39,313 nucleotides of DNA from a virus, in the UHGV virus genome UHGV-0159558; one strand, written 5' to 3'. Made by a program: the position numbers and the translations under genes. How positions within the stretch are numbered: position 1 is the stretch's first letter; every line of letters starts with the position of its first letter. Below are positions 13,124 through 37,548 of this stretch, piece by piece. The notes below the pieces were generated by a model, which did not search any database, had not been told where the DNA came from, and saw only the letters and a program-made list of their open reading frames with translations.

Positions 13124-13528
13124 GTGAAAATAAAAGAAGTGGTAAGAAAAATACTAACATATTTAGGGTTTGTAAAAAAAGAACCTATACAACCAAAAGT
13201 ATTAACGGATGATGAAATAATTAGAAAGTATGGTTCTATTTATGAAAAGTGTGACGTAAGACTTAAAATGCAAATTGACGAGTTAAGAATTATAAATGAA
13301 AGAAAAAAACTACAGCCCGAAAGATGCTATTACTGTAAAAATTTTCAAAGATTTACTGGAGATAATAAAGTATCTGGAGAAGCTAATTTCTGTAATTTTC
13401 TTGAAGATGTAATTTTAGTTCCACGTAAATTTGTTTGTAATAAATTTGAAGCTAGTCAAGAATATTTAAAACAAGTTGAAATAGCAAAATTAAAAAGAAG
13501 TGTTGATTTTAGAGAGGTAGAAGAATGA
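13124..13528 (+). CDS. Cys4 zinc-ribbon protein, paralog 1 (longer, with N-terminal extension)
   Basis: GGGAGGGG RBS with GTG start. The C-terminal half CYYCKNF...FCNF...RKFVCNKFEAS...KLKRSVDFREVEE matches the downstream paralogs. Confidence 0.45.
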   Translation: MKIKEVVRKILTYLGFVKKEPIQPKVLTDDEIIRKYGSIYEKCDVRLKMQIDELRIINERKKLQPERCYYCKNFQRFTGDNKVSGEANFCNFLEDVILVPRKFVCNKFEASQEYLKQVEIAKLKRSVDFREVEE

Positions 13529-13701
13529 CAGTAGGAGAACTAATAAAAGAACTAGAGAACTATGACGAGGATATGGAAGTTGTAGCACGTGATAAAGCAG
13601 ATGAAATAAATTTAGCATTGCTTGATATAGTAGAAGTTAAGGAAAATTATTATCTAAAGAAAACATTAGAACTTGTTGTAGACATTGAGGAGAAAATATG
13701 A
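13525..13701 (+). CDS. hypothetical acidic protein (58 aa)
   Basis: ATGA overlaps on both ends. Sequence is MTVGELIKELENYDEDMEVVARDKADEINLALLDIVEVKENYYLKKTLELVVDIEEKI. Confidence 0.4.
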   Translation: MTVGELIKELENYDEDMEVVARDKADEINLALLDIVEVKENYYLKKTLELVVDIEEKI

Positions 13702-13925
13702 AAGATTTAGGAATTAGAGAGTGTTGTTACAATTGCAAAATATTAGAAACTGTAGCTACACATGGACCAACTAGAACTGTTTATTGCAAAAATATTCAAG
13801 ATATTATTGATTTTCCAGAAAGATTTATATGTGATAAATTTGAGCCTAGTGGAAAATTTTTAAATGATTATACTTTATCTAAATTAAAAAAAGAAGTCAA
13901 TTTTAGAGAGGTGAAAGATGATTAA
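13698..13925 (+). CDS. Cys4 zinc-ribbon protein, paralog 2
   Basis: CCYNCKILETVATHGPTRTVYCKN...ERFICDKFEPS...KLKKEVNFREVKDD. Confidence 0.45.
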   Translation: MKDLGIRECCYNCKILETVATHGPTRTVYCKNIQDIIDFPERFICDKFEPSGKFLNDYTLSKLKKEVNFREVKDD

Positions 13926-14172
13926 AAAACTCATAAACTGGTGGAGATATAAAAAAGCTCTTAATAAAGAATATTCTAAAATTAGTTTCAATTGTGAAAA
14001 TTGCAGTTATTTTTATTTTTGTAACAAAAATTGTAGCTTGCTTAAAAAAGATATTAAAAATCCAAGTTACTTTATTTGTAACAATTTTGAAGTTAGTCGA
14101 TATAAATTACATGACGCTCAAAGAATAGCACTTGAAAAAACATCTAATTTCAGAGAGGTGGAAGATGATTAA
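13918..14172 (+). CDS. Cys4 zinc-ribbon protein, paralog 3
   Basis: CENCSYFYFCNKNCS...SYFICNNFEVS...TSNFREVEDD. Confidence 0.45.
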   Translation: MIKKLINWWRYKKALNKEYSKISFNCENCSYFYFCNKNCSLLKKDIKNPSYFICNNFEVSRYKLHDAQRIALEKTSNFREVEDD

Positions 14173-17354: not shown

Positions 17355-19454
17355 ATGAATAATAACCAAGGAATTATAATAGATCCTACTAAATCAAATA
17401 AGATGATACAATCCCCGCAAGTAAGTGCACCTAGTGTAAGTGACAGTAGTATGTCACTAGGCATAACTAAAGCAGTATCTAATGGAATTATGGACTTAGG
17501 AATGGCATATCAAAAGTTAAAAGATTTTCAGTCAAAATCATTTGGGCTTACAGCGGAAGCGAGTATAGATGATGATATATCTAATTTCATGTTAGAAATG
17601 CAAACTAACAAGGATATATACAAGACAGGAGATGGAATAAATAACTTAAAGGCTAAAATAGAGGAGAAAATAGCTACATATAGAAAGACTTCATTAGAAC
17701 AAGGGTATGATATGGAATATGCTGACGCATTTGAAGCACGTTTTAGACAAAAATTACAAATGGCTGAAAATAATTTTTTAGTAAAAAACTATGAATACCA
17801 AGAAAAGGTGACCCTAGACAACTATATTCACTCTCAAGAAATGGCTCAACAAAATAATGAGAGATATATGGCGTTAGGAGATTATAGTTCTGCACTAGCT
17901 GGTACACAGCAAGTTATAAATAATATGATTAGTGCTGGGAATGCAGGTATTATAGATATGGCAAAAGTTGCTACAGGAATTAAAGGTGTATGGAAAGGTA
18001 ACTTTAATGCCTTTGGACTAAGCTTAATTAATAAACCAAATGCACAAGCTTTATTAGATAAATATTCTAAGATGACTGCTGGAGAGTTCTTTGAAGAGTT
18101 TAAAAATTTCAACACCAAAATCAATGGTGAAGATTTTATGATTGGTGCTGATGAGTATGAAGAATTTAAGAGCGGGATAAACCAAGCTCAAGCAGAATTT
18201 AATAGAAGAGGGAAAGCTGAAAAACAAATGAGTTTGATAGAGCAACAAAAACTATTAACAAGATGTAAAACAGAGCCTTTTTTAGTTTATGCTGAACAAA
18301 ATAATCTTCCAGCTAATTACAAATGGGGAGAAAAGGATTTTGTAGGAGTTAGTAATATTTACTATGGAACTAATTTCTCTACATTACAAGAGTTTTATAA
18401 AGCTGGGCTAGAGCCTATATATCAATCTAAAGGAATGGCAGACCTAAGTACTTTATATGATGACCCAAATGCTAGAATGGAAGTTATAATGAGTAATAAA
18501 AATGCTATGAGAAATCAATTTGTAGGCGGAATGAGTGAAGATATACAAAATGATTATTTAGATAACACTGATAAGGATAATGGGCTTGGAAGTTTATCAA
18601 CTAACGCTTATTATAACGATGTTGAATTTTATTCAATTATGAATGATACTTATAGCCCAAATAACAGAATAGCTGCTAATACCTTTAATAAAGAAGTTGT
18701 GGACACAAGTGTTATAAATCTAAATCAATATCAAGATGATGAGCTGGATAGTATAAATCTTGTATCAGGTGGAAAATATGAAATAAAAACAGTACTAGAC
18801 CCTGAAACTGGAGAATATAAAGATGTTAGAGTTAAGAGTAATGCACATGGACCAGCTCCAGATATAGGAGCTAAATACAATTCCCTTATAGCTAATGCTA
18901 GAAAAGGAGATAAACAAGCTTTGAGAGCTACTGACGACATTTTAAAGTTTAGATCTACAAAAATTAAAGCTAAATTAATAGAAGATACAGGAGGAGTTAT
19001 TACAAAGGATTTAGCAGATGAGGCAGGATTGGAAGATAAATATGTAGGGTTGCCAATAGCAGCTCAAAGTAAAAATATCCAACAACAACTTTATGATGCC
19101 TTTACACGTGAAAATAAGGATTTTATGGAGCAACTAGATAGTGAAACGAAAGTTGTTATAGATGGAATGACTAAAGATTTTACACCTGTAGACCTAGGAA
19201 CTAAAGGTGTTATATTTGTGGGTAAAGATATCACACCTGTTCAAACTTCAAATTCAATAAATCAATTTTTAGCTACTAACAAATCTTATGTATTTTCAAC
19301 AGATGGAAAAGGAGAAGTAAAAAAATTAGAGGTTGCACCATCTTTAATAAATGTTACTAATAAGCTTGGAAGTAATAAAGTGTTTTTAACTTATGGTAAT
19401 CAACCTTTAAGAGATGAACAAGGAAAAATTCAATATATAGAGGTGGATAAATGA
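17355..19454 (+). CDS. large virion or internal protein (699 aa)
   Basis: GGGTGG RBS. Translationally coupled to neighbouring genes. Confidence 0.4.
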   Translation: MNNNQGIIIDPTKSNKMIQSPQVSAPSVSDSSMSLGITKAVSNGIMDLGMAYQKLKDFQSKSFGLTAEASIDDDISNFMLEMQTNKDIYKTGDGINNLKAKIEEKIATYRKTSLEQGYDMEYADAFEARFRQKLQMAENNFLVKNYEYQEKVTLDNYIHSQEMAQQNNERYMALGDYSSALAGTQQVINNMISAGNAGIIDMAKVATGIKGVWKGNFNAFGLSLINKPNAQALLDKYSKMTAGEFFEEFKNFNTKINGEDFMIGADEYEEFKSGINQAQAEFNRRGKAEKQMSLIEQQKLLTRCKTEPFLVYAEQNNLPANYKWGEKDFVGVSNIYYGTNFSTLQEFYKAGLEPIYQSKGMADLSTLYDDPNARMEVIMSNKNAMRNQFVGGMSEDIQNDYLDNTDKDNGLGSLSTNAYYNDVEFYSIMNDTYSPNNRIAANTFNKEVVDTSVINLNQYQDDELDSINLVSGGKYEIKTVLDPETGEYKDVRVKSNAHGPAPDIGAKYNSLIANARKGDKQALRATDDILKFRSTKIKAKLIEDTGGVITKDLADEAGLEDKYVGLPIAAQSKNIQQQLYDAFTRENKDFMEQLDSETKVVIDGMTKDFTPVDLGTKGVIFVGKDITPVQTSNSINQFLATNKSYVFSTDGKGEVKKLEVAPSLINVTNKLGSNKVFLTYGNQPLRDEQGKIQYIEVDK

Positions 19455-22400
19455 TAGAAACTGTTAGAATAGGAGAAAACGCAATAGAATCAGACCTAGC
19501 TACAGGATATAAAATAGATACTAACTATTACAATCAGCATAAAGAGGAGATTGATAGATTTTCTTCAAGAATGGGTAAAACTTCATATGATATACCACAA
19601 TTAGAAATAGTTGGAGATATTTTTAGCGGTGCAAAAAACACCGCTAAATCTGTATATTATTCTTGGTTAGGGGCAGCATATAAAGCGGCAACAGGAGAAA
19701 CTCAACCAATAGACTTTATAAGAAAAGCAGAGGAAAATCATATTAAATATAAAAACCTTACTGATGATATTAGAGAAGAATATAGAAGAAAAATTGAAAT
19801 TGAACCTAATGCCACTCAAAGATTTACAGCTAGTATGGCAGCCGAAAGTTTAAGAGTAGTAACAGATTTAAGACAACTACCAGCACTTGTTGGAACAAGT
19901 TTATTTTCGCCAGTAGTTGCTGGATATATCGGAGCTACTACAACAATAGGGAAAATAGGAACTGCTATGGCTTTAAATGGATTTGAAAATCTAGTAGAAG
20001 ATAATGTTGACACATATTTCACTGATGGAAGATTTCAAACTTTGGAAGAAAATATATATTCCTTTGGTGGTGGAGCTGGTGGAGCTTTGATTTTCCAAGG
20101 ACTAGGTTATGGAGTTAAAGCTGGAATAAATGCCGCTAGTAAAAAATTAGATAATATGGCAAATAGAAAGGTTACTAGAGAACTAGCTCTTAATATTTTT
20201 AAAGACGCTTCTAAAAAAATAGACGCAGAATCGGCTATAAATAAGGGTGATACAACTGTTAGAGATTACAATAACATTACTAAGACAGTTGATAATCTAA
20301 AAGAGATAAATGATATTAAAGGAACTGCTGGCTCTGAACAAGCGGTTATTGATAAGCATTTATATGTTAATGAGGTTAGTAGTGCAGAAGCTAAAAATAG
20401 ATCTGGAATAATTATGCAAAAAGTTATTTCAGACCCTGAAATAGATTTTATAAAAAACAGTACTGATTTTACTAATTACATCTCTAAAGATGAGAAAGGT
20501 TTTGTAGCCCTTATAAAAGCAGTGAGAGATAAAGGTATGCTTACTGAAAAAGAAGTAGAAGCCTTTGATTATTTCTTAGATATGTTTGATTCTAAAAAAA
20601 TAACTGATATAAGATTTGATACACAAGGTGCAGTAGATGAGATAAATAGCAATATTAATTCTATAATTAATAGCTACAATCCTATATTCGAAGATGAAAG
20701 AACACAACTATTTAGAGTTGATGAAGAAACTTTTATAAACAACAGAACTAAGATTAAGCATAATTACAAAGATTTTCCAAAAGGCACATTAATTACAAGA
20801 CTTGAAAAAGAGGGGATAATTCCTTCAGGAGCAAAGGTTAATTTTGTAAGGGGCAATATTGATAAAATACCTTATACTGTTAAAAGCAATTTAAACGCTG
20901 ACGGAAACCCTGTATATATTAAAAAGAAATGGTTAAAAGGTGATGAGCGTATTCAATTTGAATATGAATTAAATGGCAAAAAATACTATGGAGAACTAAC
21001 TTTAACAAAAGACAACGGATATTTAGGTAATATTTATGAGCTAGATACTAAAGCACCGAAAGGAACTAAGGAAAATATTACCCCTAAAAAACCAGTTAAA
21101 AACATAGTAGATGATATGAACGGAACTCCAGAGCCTATAAAGCCAACTACAGAAGCAGACCTTGTGTCAATGGTTAGTAAATCTCTTGGACTTGATAAAA
21201 AATATAATTCTAAATTAGGACTAGAAGATAGTGTTTTAAAAATCCAAAAAAGAGTTGGAGAAATAGTTAGAAAGAAATATAATGTTAATTCCATTGAAGA
21301 TATGATAAACAGTTATCAAATTGGGTATGATATAGATTTTTCATATAAAGGTAAAAAAACTATGGATTCTCTAGGAGAAACAAGAATTATAAATAAAGAT
21401 GGTAGAAGAGTTGTTGAAGTGTATTTAAGTGATAAAATTAATGATTTAGATACAGAACTAGGAGTAATGAGGCACGAAATACAACACATTATTGACTTAT
21501 ACCAAAATCCAGACTTTAAAAGCAAAGCATTTTCATATATAGATGGAATGGAAGATTCAACTATTGAAGAGGTGCTAAATAAAGTTGGTAGTGGACATTT
21601 TGCTGGATTTGATGATACATATTTTGAAATATCATATATTTTAAGAAATCAAATGGATAACCTTGTAAGAGACGGAAAGATAGATGATGAAGTTGCAGAG
21701 ATATTAAAACTTGAAATTCCTAAAAACGCAGATTCTCTCGACGCTAAAGTTACGGAAAGTATAGTTAAAGGGGCTATGGCAGAAAATGACCCAGCAGTTG
21801 CAATAGCAAAACTTAGAAAAGAATTAAGTACTTACACTAAATGGAAAAAAGATTTGCACGACATTTTCTTCAATGCTAGTACAACAGCAGAGGCTACTAC
21901 AAATGTAGGAGAATGGCTAGAAACTAATCTATTTATACCATTTGAAAAAGTAGACCAACAAATGAAAGGTATGATTCTTGGACTTATGGAGATAGAGGAT
22001 AAAATGGGTAGTATTCTTAGTCCTAAAGAGTTATGTGATACGTTTGATAAAGGAGGACTTGCAAGGTATTTGTTTAGATGGGATAGCAAATTACCAGATA
22101 ATCTTAAATACTTAGAACCTAAGCTACTTGAAACTAAAAAAGAGTTTTATAAGATTATGAAAGATTTAACACAAGGCAGTGAATTAACTCCAGAGGATAT
22201 AGTTAATAACTTTATGTTCGACCAAGGACTTAGTGTAGAAAAATATTTACAAAAAGAAGAACTTGTTAAATTTTTAGATGAGAATAAAAACCTTGATTTA
22301 GGTAAATTAATTAGAGGTAAAATGTCATTTGATGATGTAACAGGAATAGAGATTCCAGAAAGATTAAGAAATATAAGAGATAGATTTGCAGAGGAAAATT

Positions 22401-24343
22401 TAGAATTTTTTAGGTCTGCACCAGAAGTTTTAGAAGCTAAACTTAAAAGCAAAAAGAAAATGAGTAAATCTGAAATACTAAAAGAACTTGAAAGAGCTAG
22501 AAATTGTATGTCTAAAGAAGATAAAATAAATCTTGTAAAAAAATATAAGCTAGATGAAATAGACGGAGTGAGCAACTATATAGAAAAAAGTAATTTTTAT
22601 GCAGATGTAGAACCTAATAAAATAGCTGAAAATATTTTAGAAACCAAGAAAAGAAATGCTAAATATATGTATAGTATGGACTTAATGAGTAAAAGAGGAG
22701 ATATTAAATATAATCATTATCTAGGAACTCACCTAAATAGATTTGGTAGATTCGAGAGGTATTTGAATGAGGATATGCTAATCTCTAAAGATTCTCTAAG
22801 AAAGCTTGTAGATAAAAATAGTACTGGCGATAGAAATGCTATCCATAAATTTATAAATGAAATTTCAGCAGCTAAAGCTATGCAAGAGGTACTACCAAAC
22901 GGAGGATATAATACAGTTAAACATATCTTAGATAGACTGCAAGAGTTTGGAGCTAATGCAGATTTCCAAACTTATGCTAGAGATATAGAGGGTAAAATGA
23001 AAGAGAGAATAGGTATGCGTCTAGGAGTTGTTACTAAACCGCCTAAACAATTCTTAGATAAAGCTGTTATTAATCTATTAAGCCTTAGTAACAAGGTGAG
23101 TTTAACTGGGCTTAAAGCTTTTAAAGATTTTGTATTTGAAGCACCAACAATAGCTAGAGCTTCTACAATGCTTTATGGTAGAAGTGGAATAGTTGATACT
23201 ATAAAGCAATTTATGAAAGCGGCACAAGTCTTACATTTAAGTAAAGAAATGTATGATAAGGTTGATAAAGCTATGGGTAAAAGATTTGAAAATTCTGTTC
23301 CTATAAAATTCATAAGTTCTGTAATGGATAGTGCAGATGATTATGTAGGGTTAAGACATGAAAGGATAATGAAATATGGAAGTAAAGCTGAAAAAGCTAT
23401 GAGTTCAGTAGATAATGGACTTAATAAATTAAATCTTTATGGAGAAACTCAAAAGATAATGAAACTAGCCTCTTTCTTTATAGCTTCCGAAACTCTAAGA
23501 GATATAGGAAAATATGCTGACATAGATGACTTATTTAAGCATAACACTAACTATATGAAAAGATTATTTGATAATGTAGGAATAAATGATTTAGATTATC
23601 ACTTTATAAAAAAATTAGATACTATCCAAAGTTTTAGAGAAGGTATCTTTTCAGAAGTTGATGTTTTTGATATGATAACTAAAACTGATATGGAAAAGAA
23701 ACTCGGTAGAGTGCTTGCTGATGAAGAATTTGAACTAATGAAAAAGAGTGTAAGTGACAAAATAGTTAAATTATATGATAAGATAGCTACCGATGTATCA
23801 CCAACAGAGGCTAATCCGTCGATGAGAGCAGCAATAGAAAATATTAGAAACCCTGTCCACAGAAACTTTATGCGTCTTATGGGTAACTTCAAAACTTCTA
23901 TCAATGAACAATGGCGTAGATTAGGAAGAGATTTTTATTTATCCAATATGAATGATGGTAAATTTGATTGGGGTAACAAAATATGGCAAAAAAGATTATT
24001 TAAACATTTAGCAGCACTTCCTGTCTTTTATGGAGGGATTGCACTAATTAGTGACCCAGAGTTTTATGCTGACCCTGTAGCTACAATAAATGATAAAGTA
24101 GATGAACTTATAGATAATCCAGGATCTAATTTTTGGAATTTAGTTGATACTCAAATAAATACATGGGCATTAGTAAATGGAGCTGCAGCTGTAAGGCGTC
24201 CAATTACTATATCTCAAAATCTTTTAAAAGGAGATATTGACAAGGCATTTGTTAATATGATGAAACTAGGTATAGGAACTTCAAACTTTAACCTAGCAAC
24301 AGGAGCATATGAAAAATTCCAAGATATAGAAGATGAATTTTAG
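19451..24343 (+). CDS. giant internal virion or ejection protein (1630 aa) with an HExxH zinc-metallopeptidase motif
   Basis: GAGGTGGA RBS and ATGA overlap. Carries MRHEIQHIID (HExxH) near the middle and a glycine-rich GGGAGGALIFQGLGYG segment near the N-terminus. The size matches podovirus core proteins. Confidence 0.45.
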   Translation: MIETVRIGENAIESDLATGYKIDTNYYNQHKEEIDRFSSRMGKTSYDIPQLEIVGDIFSGAKNTAKSVYYSWLGAAYKAATGETQPIDFIRKAEENHIKYKNLTDDIREEYRRKIEIEPNATQRFTASMAAESLRVVTDLRQLPALVGTSLFSPVVAGYIGATTTIGKIGTAMALNGFENLVEDNVDTYFTDGRFQTLEENIYSFGGGAGGALIFQGLGYGVKAGINAASKKLDNMANRKVTRELALNIFKDASKKIDAESAINKGDTTVRDYNNITKTVDNLKEINDIKGTAGSEQAVIDKHLYVNEVSSAEAKNRSGIIMQKVISDPEIDFIKNSTDFTNYISKDEKGFVALIKAVRDKGMLTEKEVEAFDYFLDMFDSKKITDIRFDTQGAVDEINSNINSIINSYNPIFEDERTQLFRVDEETFINNRTKIKHNYKDFPKGTLITRLEKEGIIPSGAKVNFVRGNIDKIPYTVKSNLNADGNPVYIKKKWLKGDERIQFEYELNGKKYYGELTLTKDNGYLGNIYELDTKAPKGTKENITPKKPVKNIVDDMNGTPEPIKPTTEADLVSMVSKSLGLDKKYNSKLGLEDSVLKIQKRVGEIVRKKYNVNSIEDMINSYQIGYDIDFSYKGKKTMDSLGETRIINKDGRRVVEVYLSDKINDLDTELGVMRHEIQHIIDLYQNPDFKSKAFSYIDGMEDSTIEEVLNKVGSGHFAGFDDTYFEISYILRNQMDNLVRDGKIDDEVAEILKLEIPKNADSLDAKVTESIVKGAMAENDPAVAIAKLRKELSTYTKWKKDLHDIFFNASTTAEATTNVGEWLETNLFIPFEKVDQQMKGMILGLMEIEDKMGSILSPKELCDTFDKGGLARYLFRWDSKLPDNLKYLEPKLLETKKEFYKIMKDLTQGSELTPEDIVNNFMFDQGLSVEKYLQKEELVKFLDENKNLDLGKLIRGKMSFDDVTGIEIPERLRNIRDRFAEENLEFFRSAPEVLEAKLKSKKKMSKSEILKELERARNCMSKEDKINLVKKYKLDEIDGVSNYIEKSNFYADVEPNKIAENILETKKRNAKYMYSMDLMSKRGDIKYNHYLGTHLNRFGRFERYLNEDMLISKDSLRKLVDKNSTGDRNAIHKFINEISAAKAMQEVLPNGGYNTVKHILDRLQEFGANADFQTYARDIEGKMKERIGMRLGVVTKPPKQFLDKAVINLLSLSNKVSLTGLKAFKDFVFEAPTIARASTMLYGRSGIVDTIKQFMKAAQVLHLSKEMYDKVDKAMGKRFENSVPIKFISSVMDSADDYVGLRHERIMKYGSKAEKAMSSVDNGLNKLNLYGETQKIMKLASFFIASETLRDIGKYADIDDLFKHNTNYMKRLFDNVGINDLDYHFIKKLDTIQSFREGIFSEVDVFDMITKTDMEKKLGRVLADEEFELMKKSVSDKIVKLYDKIATDVSPTEANPSMRAAIENIRNPVHRNFMRLMGNFKTSINEQWRRLGRDFYLSNMNDGKFDWGNKIWQKRLFKHLAALPVFYGGIALISDPEFYADPVATINDKVDELIDNPGSNFWNLVDTQINTWALVNGAAAVRRPITISQNLLKGDIDKAFVNMMKLGIGTSNFNLATGAYEKFQDIEDEF

Positions 24344-24350
24344 AAAAAAA

Positions 24351-24368
24351 TTTCGAGAGCTCTCGAAA
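24351..24368. promoter_or_regulatory. perfect 18-bp palindrome TTTCGAGAGCTCTCGAAA (copy 1 of a dispersed motif; candidate parS or operator)
   Basis: Seen directly. A second perfect copy is at 33761-33778; near-copies are at 38438-38455, 38864-38877 and 37549-37570. Confidence 0.5.
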
Positions 24369-24372
24369 AAAT

Positions 24373-24401
24373 TTGAAACTTCTAAGTAATAATGTTAATA
24401 T
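24373..24401 (+). promoter_or_regulatory. promoter-like element TTGAAA-17-TAATAT, part of the 24-mer AAAAATTTGAAACTTCTAAGTAAT that recurs at 36043
   Basis: -35 and -10 hexamers with a 17-nt spacer. The whole element is repeated with one mismatch 11.7 kb downstream. Confidence 0.45.
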
Positions 24402-24415
24402 AACCATAAGAAATA

Positions 24416-24490
24416 CAGGCAACTTAATAGGTTGCCTTTTTCCATTTTTATAAAATCCGAGAAAGCGACCTAGAGAGGTCGCTTTTTTAT
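24416..24490 (+). terminator. two tandem intrinsic terminators (AGGCAAC-TTAATAG-GTTGCCT + T5; AGCGACC-TAGAGAG-GTCGCT + T6)
   Basis: Two perfect-stem hairpins each followed by a T-run, between the promoter-like element and the terL gene. Confidence 0.65.
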
Positions 24491-24506
24491 TTAGTTAATA
24501 AAATAA

Positions 24507-26084
24507 ATGGAGGTGGTAAAGTTGGGGTTTGGATTATCTACTAGACAGGAACGTAGAAAAGTAACTGTATCCTATGAAAAGGTTATAAAGAAAATGCACC
24601 TAGGACAACAAGAAATGGTTCGTGAAGTCCTAAAAGGTGAGAAAAAATATTTCGCTCTTATGGCTCACCGTAGATATGGGAAAGACTTCTTAGCGTTAAT
24701 AGTCCTTATTCTATGTGCTGTTAAATATCCTGGAAACTACTATATCTTTGCACCATATTTTAGACAGGCTAAAGAGATTGTAGTTGACGGAAAAACGCTT
24801 GACGGAGTACCTATGATTGAAAATCTATTCCCTAGAGTGCTGCTAAAAAATCCGAAATCTCAATTCATAGTAAATAGGTCTGACTGGTCTATCACTCTTT
24901 ACAACAATTCAAAGATATTCATTCGTGGAGCAGACAACCCTAATAGTAACGTAGGGGTTGGAGCTAGAGGAATAATCTACACCGAGGCTGCTCTAATGAA
25001 ACCAGGATTCTACCAATATATGAAACCAGCTATCGACGCAGTAATTAATAAAACTGGTTTCGGAGTAGTAATCTTTATTTCTACTCCAAGGGGTAAAGAT
25101 AACTGGTTCACAAGACTATTTGTAGACTACTTTAAAAAGTTTGATAAACACCCAGAAATTAAAAAACTTTGGTATGTGGATATTCAAAGAGCAAGTGAAT
25201 CTAAAGCTTGGAATGGTAACCCTGTAATGAATATTGTAGAAAGAGAGAAACAAAAGGCTGAAATGTTACCAGAGATTTATGCACAAGAATATGAATGTGC
25301 ATTAAACACAAGTTGTATGGGAGCTTATTATACGGACCAAATAGCACAAGCTATAAAGGATAAAAGAATTGGTAGGTTTGGAAAATATGAAGAGACTTAC
25401 GATGAGTATGCAAATACTAAGCTTGAATATATGGGATACTATTTCAAACATGCCCCTTTATATGTATCTTGGGATATAGGAAAACGTGACCACACAGTTA
25501 TATGGTTTTTTCAAATAAACCCAAGTAATGGCAATATAAGGTTTATCCATCACTACAGAAATAAAGGCGTTGGAGCAGACCATTTTTGTGAGTATATTAA
25601 AAACTATGTAAAAGGTAAATACTTTGGTAGTGAACCTATAATGATATTACCTCACGATGGAGATGTAGAAGAATGGACATCAACCTCAAAAAGAAGTGAC
25701 TACATTAGAGAGTTCTTCTTTAGCGATGTAAGAGTACTATCAAAAACAGACTTAGCAGGAGCTAATATGGCTACCCTTATGGCACAGATAAACAAGATTA
25801 GATTCTTGTTTACAAGAGTAGAGATTGATTCCGAGGAGTGCAACATAGGGCTAGATAAACTTAGAAGCTATATTAAAAAGTATGATAAGAACAAACAGGA
25901 ATATGTAGATATTCCAGACCATGACGCTAATGATAAAGCCTCGGATGACGCAGATTCATTCAGAACAGCTATGATTTACTATGATTTGTATTTAAAAATT
26001 CAACCAGGATTTGAAAAATTTGAAAATACTGTATTTGATACAGGAGGAGCTATAACTTATGAAGATGAAGATTATTTCTTTTAA
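24507..26084 (+). CDS. terL: terminase large subunit
   Basis: Walker-A-like MAHRRYGKDF. An IIYTEAALM segment. RNaseH-like nuclease Asp motifs WDIGKRDH, ILPHDGDVEEW and DHDANDKASDD. ISTPRGKDNWF segment. Possible TTG start at 24522 after GGAGGTGG. Confidence 0.7.
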   Translation: MEVVKLGFGLSTRQERRKVTVSYEKVIKKMHLGQQEMVREVLKGEKKYFALMAHRRYGKDFLALIVLILCAVKYPGNYYIFAPYFRQAKEIVVDGKTLDGVPMIENLFPRVLLKNPKSQFIVNRSDWSITLYNNSKIFIRGADNPNSNVGVGARGIIYTEAALMKPGFYQYMKPAIDAVINKTGFGVVIFISTPRGKDNWFTRLFVDYFKKFDKHPEIKKLWYVDIQRASESKAWNGNPVMNIVEREKQKAEMLPEIYAQEYECALNTSCMGAYYTDQIAQAIKDKRIGRFGKYEETYDEYANTKLEYMGYYFKHAPLYVSWDIGKRDHTVIWFFQINPSNGNIRFIHHYRNKGVGADHFCEYIKNYVKGKYFGSEPIMILPHDGDVEEWTSTSKRSDYIREFFFSDVRVLSKTDLAGANMATLMAQINKIRFLFTRVEIDSEECNIGLDKLRSYIKKYDKNKQEYVDIPDHDANDKASDDADSFRTAMIYYDLYLKIQPGFEKFENTVFDTGGAITYEDEDYFF

Positions 26085-26102: not shown

Positions 26103-27494
26103 ATGTTAGAGTTTAAAAAAGAATATTTTCAAACAGAAACAAATAGACACCTATACCCTACAACTCTTGACCTCTCGAAAGCAGAAGTCTATGGGTGCAA
26201 GGATAGAGAAGCGTATATGTATAAGATACCTAATGATAGATATGCAAGCAATGCTGGTAATATAGACTTTTCTCTATATCCTAACGGGGTATGGAGTGAC
26301 TATACAGGGATAAAAATAGTTGAAAGATTACCGTTTTTTCAACCTAGTATCAATTTTAATAAGCTAGGAGATATAACACCTACTAACCTTAATAAACTTA
26401 AAGATGAAATTAAAAAACATATAGTTGATATTGAAACTGCTATTATGGAAAATTATATATTTATAGACACTAAAAATGCTGGACAAAACAATTTACCATA
26501 TTTACCAGATGATTGTGTATGGTTTAGAAATGGAATTACTGGAAATATAGAAGCACTGCCAGTGGGAGAACTATATGATAAATATAAAAGTATGATAGAT
26601 AAAGTCTATAACGATGTGTATAAATTATTATTAAAAGATAAAGAAGCTATGTCACAGGAACTTAAAGAACTGTTAGCCGAAGCTATGAAGCAATTAGAAA
26701 ATTTTAAAGTAGAAGCACAAGAACAGTTTAGAGAAGAATTAAAAAAAATAGAAAATAAAACCAAAATAGAGATAGAATCTTATGTCATAGATGATATAAA
26801 ACCTGGCATAAATTCTTTTGCAGAAGAAAAAAAAGAAGAACTCCAACAATTTATAGATGAAAACAAAGCTAATCTTAAAGGGAACAAGGGAGATAAAGGG
26901 GACAAAGGAGACCCAGGACCTAAAGGAGATTCTATAAAAGGAGATAAAGGAGATATAGGACCTCGTGGGGAAAAAGGGGATATAGGACCTGTTGGTCCTC
27001 GTGGTGAACCAGGACCTACTGGTCCTCGTGGAGAATTTGTAAAAGGAGATAAGGGTGAAAAGGGGGATACAGGAGATACAGGACCTCGTGGGGAAAAGGG
27101 AGACCCAGGACCTACTGGTCCTCGTGGGGATTCTATAAAAGGTGAAAAGGGGGATAAAGGTAATACAGGTCCTGCTGGAGAAAAAGGTGACACAGGAGCT
27201 AGTATAAGTAAAATTACAAGCACTGGAAGTACAGAAGCTGGAAACAATTATTCAGTGCAAACAGATAACGGAGTAATAATAGGAGCTTTCACAGCACCAA
27301 GAGGTCCTAAAGGGATTGATGGGGCTAAAGGTGAAAAGGGAGACAAAGGAGATACAGGAGCAATAGTTACAGCTCAAGGTCAATTCGCTTTTCATGTAGA
27401 TAATAAAGGACATCTTATTTTAACTCACGAAGAGGATACAGCACCTAATTTCTCATTAAGCGAAGACGGGCATTTAATCTACACAATAAATTAA
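26103..27494 (+). CDS. collagen-like tail fibre protein (Gly-X-Y repeats)
   Basis: Long G-X-Y runs (GDKGDKGDPGPKGD, GPRGEKGDIGPVGPRGEPGPTGPRGE). GC-rich codons produce a stop-free shadow ORF on the opposite strand. Confidence 0.65.
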   Translation: MLEFKKEYFQTETNRHLYPTTLDLSKAEVYGCKDREAYMYKIPNDRYASNAGNIDFSLYPNGVWSDYTGIKIVERLPFFQPSINFNKLGDITPTNLNKLKDEIKKHIVDIETAIMENYIFIDTKNAGQNNLPYLPDDCVWFRNGITGNIEALPVGELYDKYKSMIDKVYNDVYKLLLKDKEAMSQELKELLAEAMKQLENFKVEAQEQFREELKKIENKTKIEIESYVIDDIKPGINSFAEEKKEELQQFIDENKANLKGNKGDKGDKGDPGPKGDSIKGDKGDIGPRGEKGDIGPVGPRGEPGPTGPRGEFVKGDKGEKGDTGDTGPRGEKGDPGPTGPRGDSIKGEKGDKGNTGPAGEKGDTGASISKITSTGSTEAGNNYSVQTDNGVIIGAFTAPRGPKGIDGAKGEKGDKGDTGAIVTAQGQFAFHVDNKGHLILTHEEDTAPNFSLSEDGHLIYTIN

Positions 27495-27506
27495 AGGAGG
27501 TAACAA

Positions 27507-29843
27507 ATGGCAACAATAGATTTAGGACTTGTAAGAGGTAAAGATGGTCTTAATGTAAAAGAATTGAGATTAAAAGAATCAACAGACACTCAAAACGTAT
27601 ATGAGGTTGTTTTAAGTGATGATAGTGTAGCAGGGCAAGTTACAGTACCAGCAGGGAAACAAGGACCTCAAGGGATTCAAGGGGTTAAAGGTGAAACAGG
27701 AGCTCGTGGAGCTAATGGAGCTGATGGAGCTCAAGGGGTTGGAATTTCTAAAATTGCATTTAAAAATGAAAATCTTGATGGTAGCTTTATATACGCAGTT
27801 ACTCTTACAAATAATCAAACATATGAAATAACGTGTCCAATAGGTCCTAAAGGGGATAGAGGAGATACAGGTAGTGCTGGGGCTAAAGGTGAAGCAGGAG
27901 CTCAAGGGGTTGGAATTTCTAGGATAGCATACAAAAATACAAATCAGGATGGTAGTTATGTATATACAGTTTCTCTTACTAACGGAACATCACACGAAAT
28001 AACATGTCCAATAGGTCCTAAAGGTAGCACTGGTGGTGCTGGTCCACAAGGTCCTAAAGGGGACGCTGGAGTTCAGGGGGTTCAAGGGGTTGGAATTACT
28101 AATGTCAGATACAAACAAACGTCAAGTAATGGAAGCTATATCTATACAATAGTTTTATCAAATGGAAACACATATGATATTACATGTCCAATAGGTCCTA
28201 AAGGGGATAAAGGAGACGATGGAGATACTAGTAGTATAACTTTAACATGGAGTGCTATACAAAATAAACCAACAACATTCCCATCAACTTGGAGTGAAAT
28301 AACAGGAAAACCTAGTTCGTTCCCTCCATCAGCTCATAATCAAGATTGGGGCACAATAACTGGTATACCTGGCACATTTACACCATCGCCTCATAAACAT
28401 TCTAAAATAGATATAACAGATTTTCCAGAAATTCCAAAACCTATATCTGCACTTCCAATAGGAACTATAATTCCTTATGTAGGAGGTTCGATACCACTTG
28501 GATTTTTGCTATGTGATGGTAGAGAGATAAAACAATTTGATTATCCATTATTATATAATTTACTTCCAACAGGTTGGAGTATAAACGAAGCTGGATTTAG
28601 ACGTATGGCTAAAATGGAAATTCCAGCAATGCAAAGTGCAAGTCAAAATGGATTCACTGTAACAGAAAGTAGCAAATGGCAAGATTCGGAAGCAGGTTGG
28701 AAAATATTTAATAGAAAATATTTTGATTATTTTTCAACAGCCGATGGTAATGCTAGTGGTTATGTAGAAATAAGTTATCCTGAAAAAAGAGCAGTTAGCA
28801 AAATAATTTTTAAAGCTAGAGATAGAGAAGCTAATTCAAAATGGAAAAGAGTTGCTTTTTATGGTGATGATAAAAAACTTTGGGAAGAAAGTTTTGTTTC
28901 AACTTCTCCTCAAACTAATAAAGTTTTTGAAAGAGAACTACCTTTTAATGAGACTATTGAAGAATACAATAGGTTTAAAATAGAAATAGAAGGAGAAAAT
29001 ACAGAGGTTATTTCGCTTTCAGAACTAGAAATATATACTGTTAATCTAAAAGACATTCCTATATCATCAAATCTACAAACTAAAAAGTATCTTCCAGATT
29101 TAAGAGGTAAGTTTTTAAAAGGAAATACAAGTGATAGAAAATTACTAAGTTTCGAATATCAAGGCGTAGGCAAGCACAAACATAAAGAGATTCTTAATGG
29201 TTGGGAAAATATTGATTCTTTAAATGCTGAGTTTATAGACTTGAAACCTTTAGTTACTGGGTTGACGTCTGAGAAAGATGAAAACGTTGGTTATGGCGAT
29301 AATGCAACTGTGTTAAGAACAGGAGATGAACTGGCAACAGGTGATGAAAACGTTCCTAACAATATTTCTGTTAACTACATAATTAAAGCTTTAAATGTAG
29401 ATGATGAAGTACCTCCAAGTTCTGTTTTAACAGAGATTAATAATAAAATAGAAAACAATAAAACAGATATTGAAGAATTAAGAGAAAACATAAATGTTTT
29501 AGACGGCAATACAAACTATGAAACAGTAGAGTTATTCTCTTCGCAAGTTGCTATACCAGATAAAATCACTTTAAATGAAAGTATAAAGAATTTTAGACAA
29601 ATTGAAATTTGGACTTGTTTTAATGAAAGAAATTACAAAGTGTCGCATTTATTAAATACAGATACTATAACTTATAGTGATTCCGAAACAAGTGCAACTC
29701 AAAACTCTATGAATAGATATTTTTTTGAAACCTTTGGAAATAGATATACTTTTGCTATTTTCAAAACAAATGGTACAGATGTATTAGTAGCTAATTATGA
29801 AACTGCTTGTATAACTAAAATAATAGGAATTGGAAGAAAATAA
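27507..29843 (+). CDS. tail fibre or receptor-binding protein with collagen-like segments and a triplicated 57-aa module
   Basis: G-X-Y runs interleaved with three copies of GVGIS[KR]IA[FY]KN...G[ST][FY][IV]Y[AT]V[TS]LTN...[EH]ITCPIGPKG. Long beta-rich C-terminal domain. Confidence 0.6.
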   Translation: MATIDLGLVRGKDGLNVKELRLKESTDTQNVYEVVLSDDSVAGQVTVPAGKQGPQGIQGVKGETGARGANGADGAQGVGISKIAFKNENLDGSFIYAVTLTNNQTYEITCPIGPKGDRGDTGSAGAKGEAGAQGVGISRIAYKNTNQDGSYVYTVSLTNGTSHEITCPIGPKGSTGGAGPQGPKGDAGVQGVQGVGITNVRYKQTSSNGSYIYTIVLSNGNTYDITCPIGPKGDKGDDGDTSSITLTWSAIQNKPTTFPSTWSEITGKPSSFPPSAHNQDWGTITGIPGTFTPSPHKHSKIDITDFPEIPKPISALPIGTIIPYVGGSIPLGFLLCDGREIKQFDYPLLYNLLPTGWSINEAGFRRMAKMEIPAMQSASQNGFTVTESSKWQDSEAGWKIFNRKYFDYFSTADGNASGYVEISYPEKRAVSKIIFKARDREANSKWKRVAFYGDDKKLWEESFVSTSPQTNKVFERELPFNETIEEYNRFKIEIEGENTEVISLSELEIYTVNLKDIPISSNLQTKKYLPDLRGKFLKGNTSDRKLLSFEYQGVGKHKHKEILNGWENIDSLNAEFIDLKPLVTGLTSEKDENVGYGDNATVLRTGDELATGDENVPNNISVNYIIKALNVDDEVPPSSVLTEINNKIENNKTDIEELRENINVLDGNTNYETVELFSSQVAIPDKITLNESIKNFRQIEIWTCFNERNYKVSHLLNTDTITYSDSETSATQNSMNRYFFETFGNRYTFAIFKTNGTDVLVANYETACITKIIGIGRK
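27735..28205 (+). repeat. three tandem ~171-bp coding repeats inside the tail-fibre gene
   Basis: Repeat starts at nt 27735, 27906 and 28086, derived from the protein repeat positions. Confidence 0.55.
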
Positions 29844-29845
29844 AA

Positions 29846-30289
29846 ATGGAGGAAATTATGAAAACATCAGATAAAGGTATTGAGTTCATTATCAAAGAAG
29901 AGGGAGAAGTCCTACACGCTTATAGATGTCAAGCTGGAGTGTGGACAATAGGAGTAGGGCACACTGGAGGAGTTACACCAGATATGAAAATAACCAAAGA
30001 ACAGTCAAGACAACTTTTAAAAGCTGACTTATGTAGATTTGAAAAGGCAGTTAATGAAACTATTAAACACGAACTTCTTCAGCATCAATTTGATGCACTC
30101 GTAAGCTTTAGTTTTAATGTAGGAACTCAAGCTTTTATAAACTCAACGCTAGCTAAAAAAATAAATGCTAACGCACCATATAATGAAATTAGAGAACAGT
30201 TCCTAAGATGGAATAAAGCTGGAGGAAGAGTTCTTGCAGGACTTACAAGTAGAAGAAAAAGAGAAGCGAAACTATATTATGGAGAGTGA
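29846..30289 (+). CDS. phage lysozyme (GH24 muramidase endolysin)
   Basis: GIEFIIKEEGEVLHAYRCQAGVWTIGVGHT...QFDALVSFSFNVG...FLRWNKAGGRVLAGLTSRRKREAKL closely matches the T4/lambda-type lysozyme signature (E-x8-D/C-x5-T catalytic region, FLRWNKAGG). True start is probably ATG 29858 after GGAGGA. Confidence 0.85.
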   Translation: MEEIMKTSDKGIEFIIKEEGEVLHAYRCQAGVWTIGVGHTGGVTPDMKITKEQSRQLLKADLCRFEKAVNETIKHELLQHQFDALVSFSFNVGTQAFINSTLAKKINANAPYNEIREQFLRWNKAGGRVLAGLTSRRKREAKLYYGE

Positions 30290-32525: not shown

Positions 32526-33197
32526 TTAAAGCTTCTTTACTAGGTCCGCCATCTCTTCTCTTAGTAGTTTTATAGCCGTTTCATGCTTGTAGATCTCATC
32601 ATTAATTTCCATTATCCTGTCTTGGATACTCTTTTCACTTTTAACATTTATCGTTTTGCTGGCGTCGGCAACTACCATTTTGTTGGCATCGGTAAAATGG
32701 TTACGAGCCTCTTTAATTCCTTTACCTGTTCTTACTTCTCCATCTAATACTTTAAACACTAATGCTGGAGGTGTAGCTTTATTAATAACCTCTTTTACCT
32801 CTACATCAGAAAGGGATTGTACCCTATCTTTATAGCTTGGATTCTCCAGATACAACCTATATCTACCCCTTAGTAAATACACTTGGTCCTTGTTGTACCC
32901 AAGCGTTGTGTACCACTCTGTAAAAGTTTCCTCAAGGTTATTTTTAGCAAATATCTCCCTTGCTTTTTCCAAAGTTCCCCCTAATGTTAGGGCAATTTCT
33001 CCAATTCTTTTTCTTTGATATAGAAGTTCTTTCTCATAAGTTATCAAAGAGTTCTTATCATCCGTATCTATCACGAGCCTATTATAGTCAAAATAAAGCT
33101 CCTCGGCTATTACTTGACTTATTGTATTACTTTCTTGTGAAAGGGCAGGAACGACCCTTTCACGACGTCTAAGAGCTTTGTTAAATTTACTTGCCAT
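32526..33197 (-). CDS. partition partner protein (ParB-like centromere-binding protein candidate)
   Basis: Immediately downstream of parA and overlapping it by 11 nt. Basic N-terminal tail MASKFNKALRRRERV. GGGAGA RBS. No canonical ParB GERRxRA motif recognised. Confidence 0.4.
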   Translation of the reverse strand: MASKFNKALRRRERVVPALSQESNTISQVIAEELYFDYNRLVIDTDDKNSLITYEKELLYQRKRIGEIALTLGGTLEKAREIFAKNNLEETFTEWYTTLGYNKDQVYLLRGRYRLYLENPSYKDRVQSLSDVEVKEVINKATPPALVFKVLDGEVRTGKGIKEARNHFTDANKMVVADASKTINVKSEKSIQDRIMEINDEIYKHETAIKLLREEMADLVKKL

Positions 33198-33921
33198 ATC
33201 TCAATATCTCCCTTGTTAAATTTTCAAAGTCAGTTGCACCATTTGACCTTGGTGAGTATTCAAATATAAACTGACCGCACATCTCCGCTTCTTTAAGTTT
33301 TATATTCTCTCTTATAAAACTTACTAACATATCATCACGATAATCAATCAAGAGCTCCCCAATACCCTCTAAAAACTTTTTGTCGTTGGGTACACGACTA
33401 AGATACCCTTTATGTATTAGATTAGGTTTTAGAGTACTTTTATGGCTTCCTATAAAAGACTCTAAAATATCGAATCCATCTAAGCTAAACGAGTGAGGCT
33501 CTATTGGTGTTAAAACTATATCACTTGCATTAATTGCATTAGTCTCAGGCTTTTTCATATCAGGACGGCAGTCAATAATCACAAAATCATAGTCGTTAAT
33601 CACTAAAAGCTGCTCTTTAATCACAAAATCAGATGTGATACTAACTTTTAAATCATCATCTAGGTTTCTCATTCTTAGATCTCCGGGTATCAAATCTAGG
33701 TTATCTGTTATCTTGACTATATTCCCTTTAAAATCCCTCTTCATAATAGCGTCATAAATATTTCGAGAGCTCTCGAAATTTAATGATGTACTAAGGTTTC
33801 TTTGAAAGTCTAAGTCTATAAGTAAAACCTTTTTATCTCTTTGTAACATTCCAGCTACTTCTCTAGCTCCTGTTGTCTTTCCTGTTCCACCCTTTTCAAC
33901 CATAAAACTAATTATTTTCAT
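33187..33921 (-). CDS. parA: ParA/Soj-family partition ATPase
   Basis: Deviant Walker A: VEKGGTGKTT. Also LLIDLDFQRNLS and VIIDCRPD motifs. GGGGG RBS. Confidence 0.8.
   Translation of the reverse strand: MKIISFMVEKGGTGKTTGAREVAGMLQRDKKVLLIDLDFQRNLSTSLNFESSRNIYDAIMKRDFKGNIVKITDNLDLIPGDLRMRNLDDDLKVSITSDFVIKEQLLVINDYDFVIIDCRPDMKKPETNAINASDIVLTPIEPHSFSLDGFDILESFIGSHKSTLKPNLIHKGYLSRVPNDKKFLEGIGELLIDYRDDMLVSFIRENIKLKEAEMCGQFIFEYSPRSNGATDFENLTREILRYGK
33760..33779. promoter_or_regulatory. 20-bp palindrome ATTTCGAGAGCTCTCGAAAT inside parA (copy 2 of the dispersed motif)
   Basis: Seen directly. Identical 18-bp core to 24351-24368. Confidence 0.5.
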
Positions 33922-34435
33922 TTTCTACCCCCTGTATTAAAGTAAGTATATTAAGAAATTGTTTTTCAAAATGCTCTACAATCTCTTTTCTCTCTTTATC
34001 ATCAAAGCAAATATCAGGTATTTTACTAAGTTTTTCACTAGCTTTATAATACCAGTCTAAGTACTCTTTATAATACTTGCTGGCGTTTTCAAGCTTTAAC
34101 TCCTCTTGAATTTCAACATCTCTTTTTTGGAGTTTGTATATTAATTCTTGTCCACACTCAGGCAAAATATATTTTATCGGTTCTTCTCTTTTTTCTTGCA
34201 TAAGAAACCAATATTTATTTTTAAATTTTTCCATTAATCTTTCTTTTTCGTGAGGTTCAAAATATATATCTGGAATTGCTTTTAATTTTTTTAAAGCATA
34301 ATGATACCAGTCAAGCTGTTTTTCTAACTCTACATTGTCTTTTAATCTTGTTCCTGATAATTTCTCATGCTCTTCTTTTAGTAATTCCAATCTTTTTTTG
34401 TAGTTTATTTTCATTACTCCACCCCTTTTAAACAA
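33908..34435 (-). CDS. hypothetical protein with an internal tandem duplication (175 aa)
   Basis: Two ~40-aa repeats: QLDWYHYALKKLKAIPDIYFEPHEKERLMEKFKNKYW and YLDWYYKASEKLSKIPDICFDDKERKEIVEHFEKQF. GGGGTGGAG RBS. Confidence 0.45.
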   Translation of the reverse strand: MFKRGGVMKINYKKRLELLKEEHEKLSGTRLKDNVELEKQLDWYHYALKKLKAIPDIYFEPHEKERLMEKFKNKYWFLMQEKREEPIKYILPECGQELIYKLQKRDVEIQEELKLENASKYYKEYLDWYYKASEKLSKIPDICFDDKERKEIVEHFEKQFLNILTLIQGVENENN

Positions 34436-35331
34436 GCTCTTATAAAATTAATATACATAGTTTTATTATTTCTTTTCATAGTTTCAATAAAGCCTTTATC
34501 CATTCCATCAGATATTAATTTTTCAAGTCCTTTTTCTTCTTCCTCTGGTGTAAGGTCTTCAGGTTCTACAATTTTTATATCTTCAATTTCTTCTTTCTTT
34601 ACTTCTTTTTTAGGCTTTTTCTTTGGCTCTTCTTTTATTATTTCAGGTTCTTTTATATCCCAATGTAATATGACTTTATCAACTTCTTTTCCTGCTCTTT
34701 TTCTCTCCAGTTCTAAGTTTATTATATTAGTTTTTTCAAATTCTTTTTTAGTCACCCCTATAACCTTAGCTTCGACATCTGCCCATCTATATGATTCAGG
34801 AACATTTAATAAGTGCCTGAAAAACTCTCCTGAATATTCTTTCTTTTTTAGCCCTTTATAGCTCATCACAATTTGATATATTTTTTTAGCATATTTACCC
34901 TTTAGACTTGCAAATTCTAAAAGCTCATGTTGGGTAAAATTTCCAGTAAGATTAAAAAACAAATGAATATATTTCTTTTTAAGAACAAAAATAATCTTTT
35001 TATTATCTTTGCTGAAACATAGCTTATCAAATATATGTTCACAAACATTATACTCATCTTCCTCAAAGTAAATTTTAGTATCATAAATTTTCTCTAGTGA
35101 TTCTGTTAATCTCTTCATAGAAACATTACCTTGAAGTAATTTTTTTATAGCTTGTGAGGATAATTCTAATTCTAAATCTTTATCTACTGCCACATTCATG
35201 TGGTCGGTAACTTTTTTTCTTGCTGAGTAAGCTAAAGTTAATACTAAATCCATTTCATAAGCTGAATAATTATTCATAGAAGTAGCAAAATCTTTACTAT
35301 ACTCTACTATTGCATTTGATTCTTTTTCCAT
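34414..35331 (-). CDS. Rep_3-family theta-replication initiator (RepB-like)
   Basis: NNYSAYEMDLVLTLAYSARKK matches the Rep_3 N-terminal signature (N.L..A.Y.LSL.E.RL.L.L). The true start is ATG 35331 with a GGGG RBS. Iterons lie 270 bp upstream. Lys/Glu-rich C-terminus. Confidence 0.6.
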   Translation of the reverse strand: MEKESNAIVEYSKDFATSMNNYSAYEMDLVLTLAYSARKKVTDHMNVAVDKDLELELSSQAIKKLLQGNVSMKRLTESLEKIYDTKIYFEEDEYNVCEHIFDKLCFSKDNKKIIFVLKKKYIHLFFNLTGNFTQHELLEFASLKGKYAKKIYQIVMSYKGLKKKEYSGEFFRHLLNVPESYRWADVEAKVIGVTKKEFEKTNIINLELERKRAGKEVDKVILHWDIKEPEIIKEEPKKKPKKEVKKEEIEDIKIVEPEDLTPEEEEKGLEKLISDGMDKGFIETMKRNNKTMYINFIRACLKGVE

Positions 35332-35363
35332 TCTAACCCCTTTCTTTAAAATTGTAATCATAG

Positions 35364-35389
35364 TGTGAAAAAAATAATAAATTTTCACG
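35364..35389. promoter_or_regulatory. inverted repeat GTGAAAA-N12-TTTTCAC in the rep promoter region (autoregulation operator candidate)
   Basis: Seen directly. Related TTTTCACAC(TT) partial iterons are at 35447 and 35561. Confidence 0.35.
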
Positions 35390-35602
35390 CTTAATTAAAT
35401 ATACAATATTTTTTAAATAAAATCTACCCAAAAATTAGGTTTTTTTCACACTTTAAAGTACGACATTTTGTAACAAATGTTGGAATATAAATTTTAATTA
35501 TAAATAAGTAATAACCACATTTTATATTCAATGAGTGAAAAAAGCAACAATTTTTCACATTACATTATAAACATCTTTAATACTTTAGAAGTAAAAACAG
35601 TT

Positions 35603-35728
35603 CTGACAAAACGTCACACTTTGCTGACAAAACTTCACACTTCACTGACAAAACTTCACACTTCACTGACAAAACTTCACACTTTGCTGACAAAACGTCA
35701 CGGAAAACTGACAAAACTTCACTTTTAT
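35603..35728. repeat. iteron array: six contiguous 21-bp direct repeats (consensus CTGACAAAACTTCACACTTCA); origin of theta replication
   Basis: Units start at 35603, 35624, 35645, 35666, 35687 and 35708. The central copies are perfect; the outer ones degenerate. Head-to-tail with no spacers, so not a CRISPR array. Confidence 0.8.
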
Positions 35729-35894
35729 GTCGCTAAAGTCCTTGATTTTAGGGAAGTCTTGAGCCTCTTAAACTATATAAACTTATAAACTTATAAATAG
35801 GTAAAATTTTTTCACTTTATTTTTTAAATAATGTGACAAAATGGTACCCTATCACTTGAACTTCCCATCAAAATTTAATTTTTACATATTAAGT

Positions 35895-36026: not shown

Positions 36027-36042
36027 CTCTGCGTAAGTTTTA

Positions 36043-37526: not shown

Positions 37527-37548
37527 CTCTTTTTTTAGTTTTTATATC

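Follow-up and report, generated by a model that had tools for sequence, protein, structure and literature searches.

The Q protein of phage lambda and AlpA of Pseudomonas aeruginosa recognise an element that lies between the -35 and the -10 and is common to their few target promoters, each of which is followed by one or two intrinsic terminators before lysis genes (PMC7969949). Here we describe a locus of this general architecture in a viral genome of 39,313 nucleotides (UHGV-0159558; the window is this whole stretch of DNA), in which a predicted promoter runs directly into two terminators placed ahead of terL. The element is best described as a family-specific, covariation-supported tandem-terminator leader before terL, carried by uncharacterised phage-plasmids of Fusobacteriaceae.

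The window has a GC content of about 31%. Its plus strand encodes, in this order, a terS-like ORF (5068), a portal or adaptor gene (6323), the major capsid gene (8856), a 1630-aa tail protein (19451-24343), terL, two collagen-like tail fibres, an endolysin and holin-like ORFs. The minus strand carries ParA (33187-33921) with a downstream partner ORF, a Rep3-type initiator (34414-35388) and an early operon, one gene of which encodes a Sak annealing protein; seven 21-bp iterons (CTGACAAAACTTCACACTTCA, 35582-35743) lie upstream of the initiator gene. Since structural and lysis genes on one strand are combined with ParA, the Rep3-type initiator and iterons on the other, the window is a phage-plasmid. 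Because the early operon seems to run on across the ends of the window, we take the genome to be probably circular and assume so below. The names attached to the TerL relatives are Fusobacterium varium, Fusobacteriaceae and Cetobacterium, and their contigs, of 35-40 kb, have the same gene order. No close or near-identical DNA match to the window was present in the phage and plasmid collections searched, and a search of the literature on Fusobacterium phage-plasmids gave nothing relevant.

Several other features of the genome deserve mention. A perfect consensus promoter (TTGACA-17-TATAAT, 1117-1145, minus strand) points leftward and is divergent from a gene for an XRE-type HTH protein (1244-1558); the immunity switch probably lies here, and with it the beginning of the early operon. 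At 2677-2840, directly after the stop of ORF 2500-2676, a reading frame resembling AbrB/SpoVT (…ISVPLQWLQDLGVDE…) was recognised, by eye only; it lacks a canonical start codon. Three small paralogous ORFs are arranged in tandem at 13124-14172, in the region that separates head from tail genes. Each encodes a four-cysteine motif and a conserved ...FREVE(D)D C-terminus, and another Cys-rich ORF is found at 10387-10638; none of them gave a family match, and these small proteins may be zinc-ribbon proteins. Finally, a palindromic element of about 55 nt, in which AT-rich arms (TTTTAGTTTTTATA...TATCAAAACTAAAA) flank a GC-rich inner hairpin, is present in four copies between or within early genes (309-363, 37533-37587, 38034-38088 and 38845-38899).

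The region that separates the tail gene from terL, and the operon that follows, contain these features:

24351-24368, no strand: 18-bp perfect dyad TTTCGAGAGCTCTCGAAA, candidate operator or centromere-like site
24366-24390, plus strand: first copy of a 25-mer, with an A-tract, the -35 TTGAAA (24373-24378) and most of the spacer
24393-24401, plus strand: extended -10 TGtTAATAT of the terL-operon promoter, from a promoter scan
24417-24448, plus strand: terminator T1, hairpin AGGCAACTT/AGGTTGCCT (24417-24437), then TTTTTCCATTTTT
24459-24494, plus strand: terminator T2, 13-bp hairpin (24459-24488), then a T-run
24511-26084, plus strand: terL, with ribosome site GGAGGTG (24511-24517) and TTG start at 24522
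terL operon, plus strand: terL as first gene, tail fibres 26103-29843, endolysin 29846-30289, holin-like ORFs to 30781

The 25-mer (AAAAAATTTGAAACTTCTA[A/G]GTAAT) is found at 24366-24390 and 36042-36066 and nowhere else in the window, with 0 occurrences expected by chance. Its two plus-strand occurrences (AAAAAATTTGAAACTTCTARGTAAT) differ by one A/G, and shuffling gave matches in 0 of 100 sequences, even when three mismatches were allowed. The initial annotation, made from the letters of the window, was thus right in reporting a near-identical repeat at two sites. It had also placed a TTGAAA-17-TAATAT promoter in both copies, which is correct for copy 1, where TTGAAA is followed by a 17-nt spacer (CTTCTAAGTAAT) and TGtTAATAT, and wrong for copy 2, which has a 15-nt spacer and TGtTATACT; the -10 lies outside the repeat, and weaker similarity between the copies extends to about the start site if gaps are allowed. 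The copy-1 promoter has the features of a sigma-70 extended -10 promoter, namely a TGnTATAAT-like -10 with an optional -35 and a fixed position in the relatives, and transcription from it would start near 24408. Read from the sequence, the part common to both promoters covers the -35 and the spacer. Lambda Q and P. aeruginosa AlpA contact their target promoters at exactly this place, between the -35 and the -10 (PMC7969949), and the 25-mer is a candidate recognition element. No -10-like sigma-dependent pause element was evident in the first transcribed bases of the window and its relatives: among the hexamers of the conserved start region, T(A/T)AAGAAAT, none combines an A at position 2 with a T at position 6, and the region makes a better A-tract partner for the T1 U-run.

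The 18-bp dyad adjoins this promoter, with its centre about 48 bp upstream of the predicted start. Three copies of it are present in the window, against 0 expected (24351-24368; 33761-33778, inside parA; and 38439-38456, inside an early ORF), and its half-site GCTCTCGAA has 19 matches against 3.6 expected, a roughly five-fold excess; 38862-38881, 37550 and 517 are further positions listed with the dyad or its half-site. The relatives have different dyads, of the form TTTCG-N7-8-CGAAA, at or near their terL promoters. Such dispersed dyads could be centromere or operator sites tying partition or repression to the late promoter, as is reported for N15. Two other candidate operators were discarded: ATTACTTnnAAGTAAT, which overlaps the 25-mer, has 12 matches against 13 expected and is explained by chance, and the enrichment of CTTCTARGTAAT is weak.

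Fifteen nucleotides after copy 1 come T1 and then T2, both flagged by a terminator scan. Relative to shuffled sequence, T1 alone folds with -12.3 kcal/mol (z -4.8) and the two together with -30.4 kcal/mol (z -5.9). The T1 hairpin is directly followed by TTTTT, and both elements combine the GC-rich hairpin, the U-run and the conserved structure that characterise intrinsic (Rho-independent) terminators. The ribosome site of terL is located only about 20 nt after T2, so no promoter fits there, and transcription of terL, the fibres and the lysis genes must therefore cross T1 and T2. These assignments agree with the initial annotation, which had described two strong terminators about 15 nt beyond copy 1 and directly upstream of terL, the tail fibres and the lysis genes: terL belongs to PHROG 2 (E 8e-28; its TTG start is kept in relatives), the fibres are collagen-like and the endolysin is recognised with E 4e-58. 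The genes behind the terminators are limited to terL, the fibres and the lysis genes; those for head and tail are upstream.

Relatives of the window were gathered through TerL, whose identity within the family is 55-86%. The promoter-T1-T2-terL layout is present in at least 10 lineages of this phage-plasmid family, in every relative with a TerL identity of at least 55% except L005 (the genomes with the unit include L004, L006, L007, L011-16, L018-26, L056, L057, L061 and L062). They share the order -10, about 15 nt, hairpin 1 with its U-run, linker, hairpin 2 with its U-run, ribosome site and terL, and the unit is found once per genome, always just upstream of the terL ribosome site. The promoter sequences vary among lineages; in 9 of 11, TGnTAnnnT, which has a background rate of 0.0023 per nt, ends 15-16 nt before hairpin 1, and the remaining two have TATAAT at that position. 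Both hairpins are recovered by RNAalifold. In a model-based alignment, 97.8% of the cells pair, versus 23-58% with the partner columns slid; as the alignment was fitted to the model, which favours structure, we take these slid controls as decisive. Compensatory changes on both sides affect 9 of the 16 pairs (3 of 8 in helix 1, which is 96% paired, and 6 of 8 in helix 2, which is 99% paired), and the covariation score was reached by 0 of 500 shuffles. The covariance model gives one plus-strand match per genome, always at terL, with none at copy 2 and none in the distant TerL relatives (L058, 49%; L059, 44%; L060, 37%; and L008). As far as sequence comparison can tell, this conservation across the family shows that the promoter-T1-T2 unit is a functional unit.

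The same intergenic site has other occupants in some relatives. Between the tail gene and the terL leader of L014 (9540-9830; also in L011-L016, L022 and L023) there are a dedicated terminator and small units, the latter being two tandem, partly duplicated promoter-hairpin-terminator units that contain GAACGAAAGACTTA.TATGTTCA. The site between the tail gene and terL thus seems to accumulate small RNA-like units.

Our leading reading is that a promoter-proximal double terminator gates the packaging and lysis operon, and that regulated antitermination opens this gate. The 25-mer, with its A-tract, -35 and spacer, would make up the upstream half of an extended -10 promoter, of the host's sigma-70 type, that was duplicated in this lineage, and copy 1 would be the dedicated promoter of the operon encoding terL, the tail fibres, the endolysin and the holin. 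Polymerase leaving from about 24408 would enter the tandem terminators within 10 nt and, if these act in vivo as predicted, the default product would be a 35-85-nt RNA only and the packaging and lysis operon would be silent, which would matter for a prophage kept as a plasmid. Expression of the operon would need a termination-resistant RNA polymerase. The likeliest route to it would be a phage factor that recognises the promoter through the shared -35 and spacer, possibly together with the adjacent 18-bp dyad, and then accompanies the polymerase in the manner of lambda Q and P. aeruginosa AlpA. The architecture is Q/AlpA-like; the mechanism of antitermination is inferred by analogy.

The candidate factor was sought among the ORFs of the window. 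Neither PHROG (about 50 ORFs), Pfam (20 ORFs) nor NCBIfam returned a Q-, N- or AlpA-like protein or any other known antiterminator, including the AlpA family proper (PF05930), although a very divergent Q could escape sequence methods. Two ORFs were followed up, and neither has a sequence match to a solved structure. ORF 4079-5077 encodes a 332-aa family-specific protein that heads the structural operon (fold pLDDT 87); it was rejected as antiterminator, its best PDB match being, weakly, the rolling-circle initiator RepD/RepDE (E 2.7e-3, TM about 0.3). It is preceded by a hairpin-rich non-coding region of about 800 nt (3290-4070), and, going by the modelled fold, the two may form a lytic rolling-circle origin and its initiator, besides the Rep3 theta origin. 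ORF 36268-36822 occupies a Q-like position as the last early gene, and it was rejected since it has only three homologues and is therefore not a core gene of the family. With no factor found and both candidates unfit, we put regulated antitermination at slightly less than an even chance. The lambda pR'-tR'/Q arrangement proposed by the initial annotation therefore stands in part. The architecture, conserved with covariation, supports a gate on the expression of terL and the lysis genes; in contrast, the Q-like or other antiterminator that was to be looked for among the ORFs did not appear, not all late genes are gated, and the duplication, taken there as part of the switch, is lineage-specific and not a feature of the family.

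Static attenuation or insulation is possible, though rather improbable. T1 and T2 would then be the ordinary end terminators of the head-tail operon of about 20 kb and would also throttle the local promoter; a fixed, small read-through would feed terL, the fibres and the lysis genes, set their stoichiometry and delay lysis, with no dedicated antiterminator. Indeed, no other strong plus-strand terminator is found between about 2900 and 31079, in the window the two come straight after the gene for the 1630-aa tail protein, and the outcome of the antiterminator search is what this explanation expects. It is also favoured by L005, which manages without terminators: this genome keeps the promoter and part of the T1 sequence, and its leader has been remodelled into a hairpin that lacks a U-run and is non-terminating. 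Retention of the promoter without a terminating leader indicates, for its part, that the promoter serves terL. L057, to which L005 is most closely related, does have the terminators. However, two strong terminators in tandem (with stems of 9 bp and 13 bp) would allow very little read-through for essential genes, and pure insulation would put the promoter downstream of the terminators, whereas the order of promoter and then terminators is conserved in all lineages. In addition, the L011/L014 lineage ends its tail gene with a separate terminator and still keeps the promoter-T1-T2 unit right in front of terL, which argues that T1 and T2 gate the local promoter and do not merely end the tail operon.

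The second copy of the 25-mer lies between the iteron origin and the end of the early operon, in the following setting:

35895-36025, plus strand: sRNA-A, an sRNA-like unit just upstream of copy 2, with a terminator (35989-36016) and T-run
36042-36066, plus strand: 25-mer copy 2, with the -35 TTGAAA at 36049-36054
36067-36075, plus strand: extended -10 TGtTATACT of copy 2, read from the sequence
36082-36268, plus strand: sRNA-B, a predicted non-coding RNA of about 185 nt, with a terminator at about 36218-36265

Under the regulated-antitermination reading, copy 2 would be a second target of the same promoter specificity, producing by default a non-coding RNA beside the plasmid origin. Transcription would start near 36082, and no ORF is found in the roughly 185 nt that follow. 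The orphan AGGAGG and the terminator noticed there initially are both present: the predicted RNA has an unstructured AU-rich 5' end, a central stem that joins the AGGAGG to ACCCCU by pairing, and a terminator that also serves, tail-to-tail, the last early gene of the minus strand (fold energy -41.3 kcal/mol, z -3.6). The neighbouring sRNA-A unit has the best promoter of the region (TTGACA-17-TGgTATTAT, 35895-35923; 11 of 12 positions plus the TG) and a predicted transcript of about 95 nt with a C-rich single-stranded stretch (fold z -6.7). Both units are near-identical in L002 and L018 and were not found in the other relatives. The iterons of L002 differ (TTGACAAGACTTCCC...), although the flanking sRNA region is the same as that of the window. 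In L018, the terminator loop of sRNA-A is exactly inverted, from CACCCA to TGGGTG, and the final terminator of sRNA-B has been replaced. When further relatives of the copy-2 RNA, the 25-mer or T1 were sought in IMG/VR, only the same contigs were returned, and a ParA-based search yielded nothing.

It is also conceivable, and in our estimation unlikely, that the short RNAs are themselves the real products and act in trans on such things as immunity, copy number or host genes. Copy 1 would then give a two-hairpin RNA of 35-85 nt sharing the terminator of the tail operon, of the 3'-UTR type, and copy 2 the longer sRNA. The initial annotation had offered a short RNA from each copy as its alternative; it is the default prediction for both copies and the better reading for copy 2. 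Both units consist of a promoter, a structured RNA and a terminator, with no ORF; another sRNA-like unit adjoins copy 2; the L014 lineage has its extra promoter-hairpin-terminator units at the corresponding place; and the linker UUUUUCCAUUU is conserved in several lineages. Against this, the copy-2 RNA is confined to near-identical relatives, and the transcription of terL would be left unexplained. No target was found either: pairing of the copy-2 RNA or sRNA-A with the terL leader was rejected, the duplex energies being no better than with shuffled sequence, and a genome-wide search for RNA-RNA targets of the two gave no outliers except self-antisense. Nor did Rfam 15 contain a family matching at the gathering or E-value threshold, the best being csRNA (26 bits versus a 57-bit cut-off). 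A type I toxin antisense to sRNA-A, a hydrophobic ORF of 22 aa at 35934-36002, was also considered; its GTG start falls in the terminator loop that is inverted in L018, so this ORF is probably an effect of base composition.

The duplication itself is restricted to the lineage of the window (the window and L018). No second copy of the terL promoter was found in other lineages within about 10 kb on either side of terL, from which it follows that the shared element is not needed for the conserved gate. In the L011 lineage, a similar promoter, TTGAAC-TTTCTAG...TGTTATAAT, stands upstream of terL at the head of a small hairpin-terminator unit, so this type of promoter appears to move within the family. 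When L026 is compared with the window at 24200-24345, a different tail gene 3' end is joined to an identical dyad, promoter, leader and terL, so that a boundary of mosaic recombination falls at the tail gene's stop codon. That the 25-mers are just the scar of a recombination event, or come from a promoter picked up at a mosaic junction, with no shared regulation, is suggested by this restricted distribution, the L026 junction and the promoter shuffling to which L011 points, and is nevertheless very unlikely, given that the identity spans exactly the functional -35 and spacer and ends before the -10, that both copies keep an extended -10, and that L018 retains both copies though the adjoining terminators have diverged.

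Regulated antitermination also has a bolder version, which we regard as doubtful and put below the short-RNA explanation. It proposes an antiterminator encoded by the family, unrelated in sequence to those known, that would load at the promoter through the -35 and spacer and act on two targets. At copy 1 the new factor would switch on the operon of terL and the lysis genes, and at copy 2 it would turn the sRNA promoter into the origin of a long late transcript, antisense through the early operon; this transcript would shut that operon off and, if the genome is circular as assumed, read on into the head-tail operon. A coupling of the gate to plasmid partition or repression would come from the dispersed 18-bp dyads, of which one lies inside parA. 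To our knowledge, almost no regulation has been characterised in the phages of Fusobacteriaceae; if a dedicated factor opens the gate, it would represent a new class of promoter-loaded antiterminator in these phages, and the gate would explain how the lysis cassette stays silent in a prophage kept as a plasmid. A marker for finding such elements is at hand in the conserved 90-nt leader (model R1), which could also act as a reporter when phage ORFs are screened for read-through activity.

How does this locus relate to the systems described so far? (i) As in the put RNA of HK022, a cis-acting antitermination RNA, two stem-loops come directly after a promoter. However, the hairpins described here carry U-runs, which makes each of them a terminator, unlike put; their loops are variable and they have no Rfam match. 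(ii) The phage-plasmids P1 (c4), P4 (CI) and N15 (CA) reportedly use small regulatory RNAs, and they share with the window the phage-plasmid setting and the presence of short promoter-terminator RNA units near control or replication regions; they differ in that there is neither sequence nor Rfam similarity, nor an identified complementary target. (iii) The lambda pR'-QBE-tR' region with Q has a promoter and an intrinsic terminator before lysis and late genes, a short terminated RNA as default product and a recognition sequence between the -35 and the -10, for all of which there is a counterpart or a candidate here. In contrast to lambda, no Q homologue or evident sigma-dependent pause element accompanies the locus, there are two terminators, which start at about +10 and not at about +190, the gate has nothing but terL, the fibres and the lysis genes behind it, with the head and tail genes upstream, and the host is Fusobacteriaceae-like. 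(iv) From AlpA, acting at PalpB and PPA0807 of P. aeruginosa (PMC7969949, PMC9371919), the locus is set apart by the failure to detect an AlpA-family protein, by a motif of unrelated sequence, and by a second target that is a non-coding RNA unit and not an operon. Even so, a spacer motif common to the target promoters and intrinsic terminators downstream of it are present here, at the level of architecture only, and, by analogy, AlpA would be the closest parallel that we can offer: two target promoters with a shared motif, each followed by one or two terminators, and lysis genes beyond them (PMC7969949).
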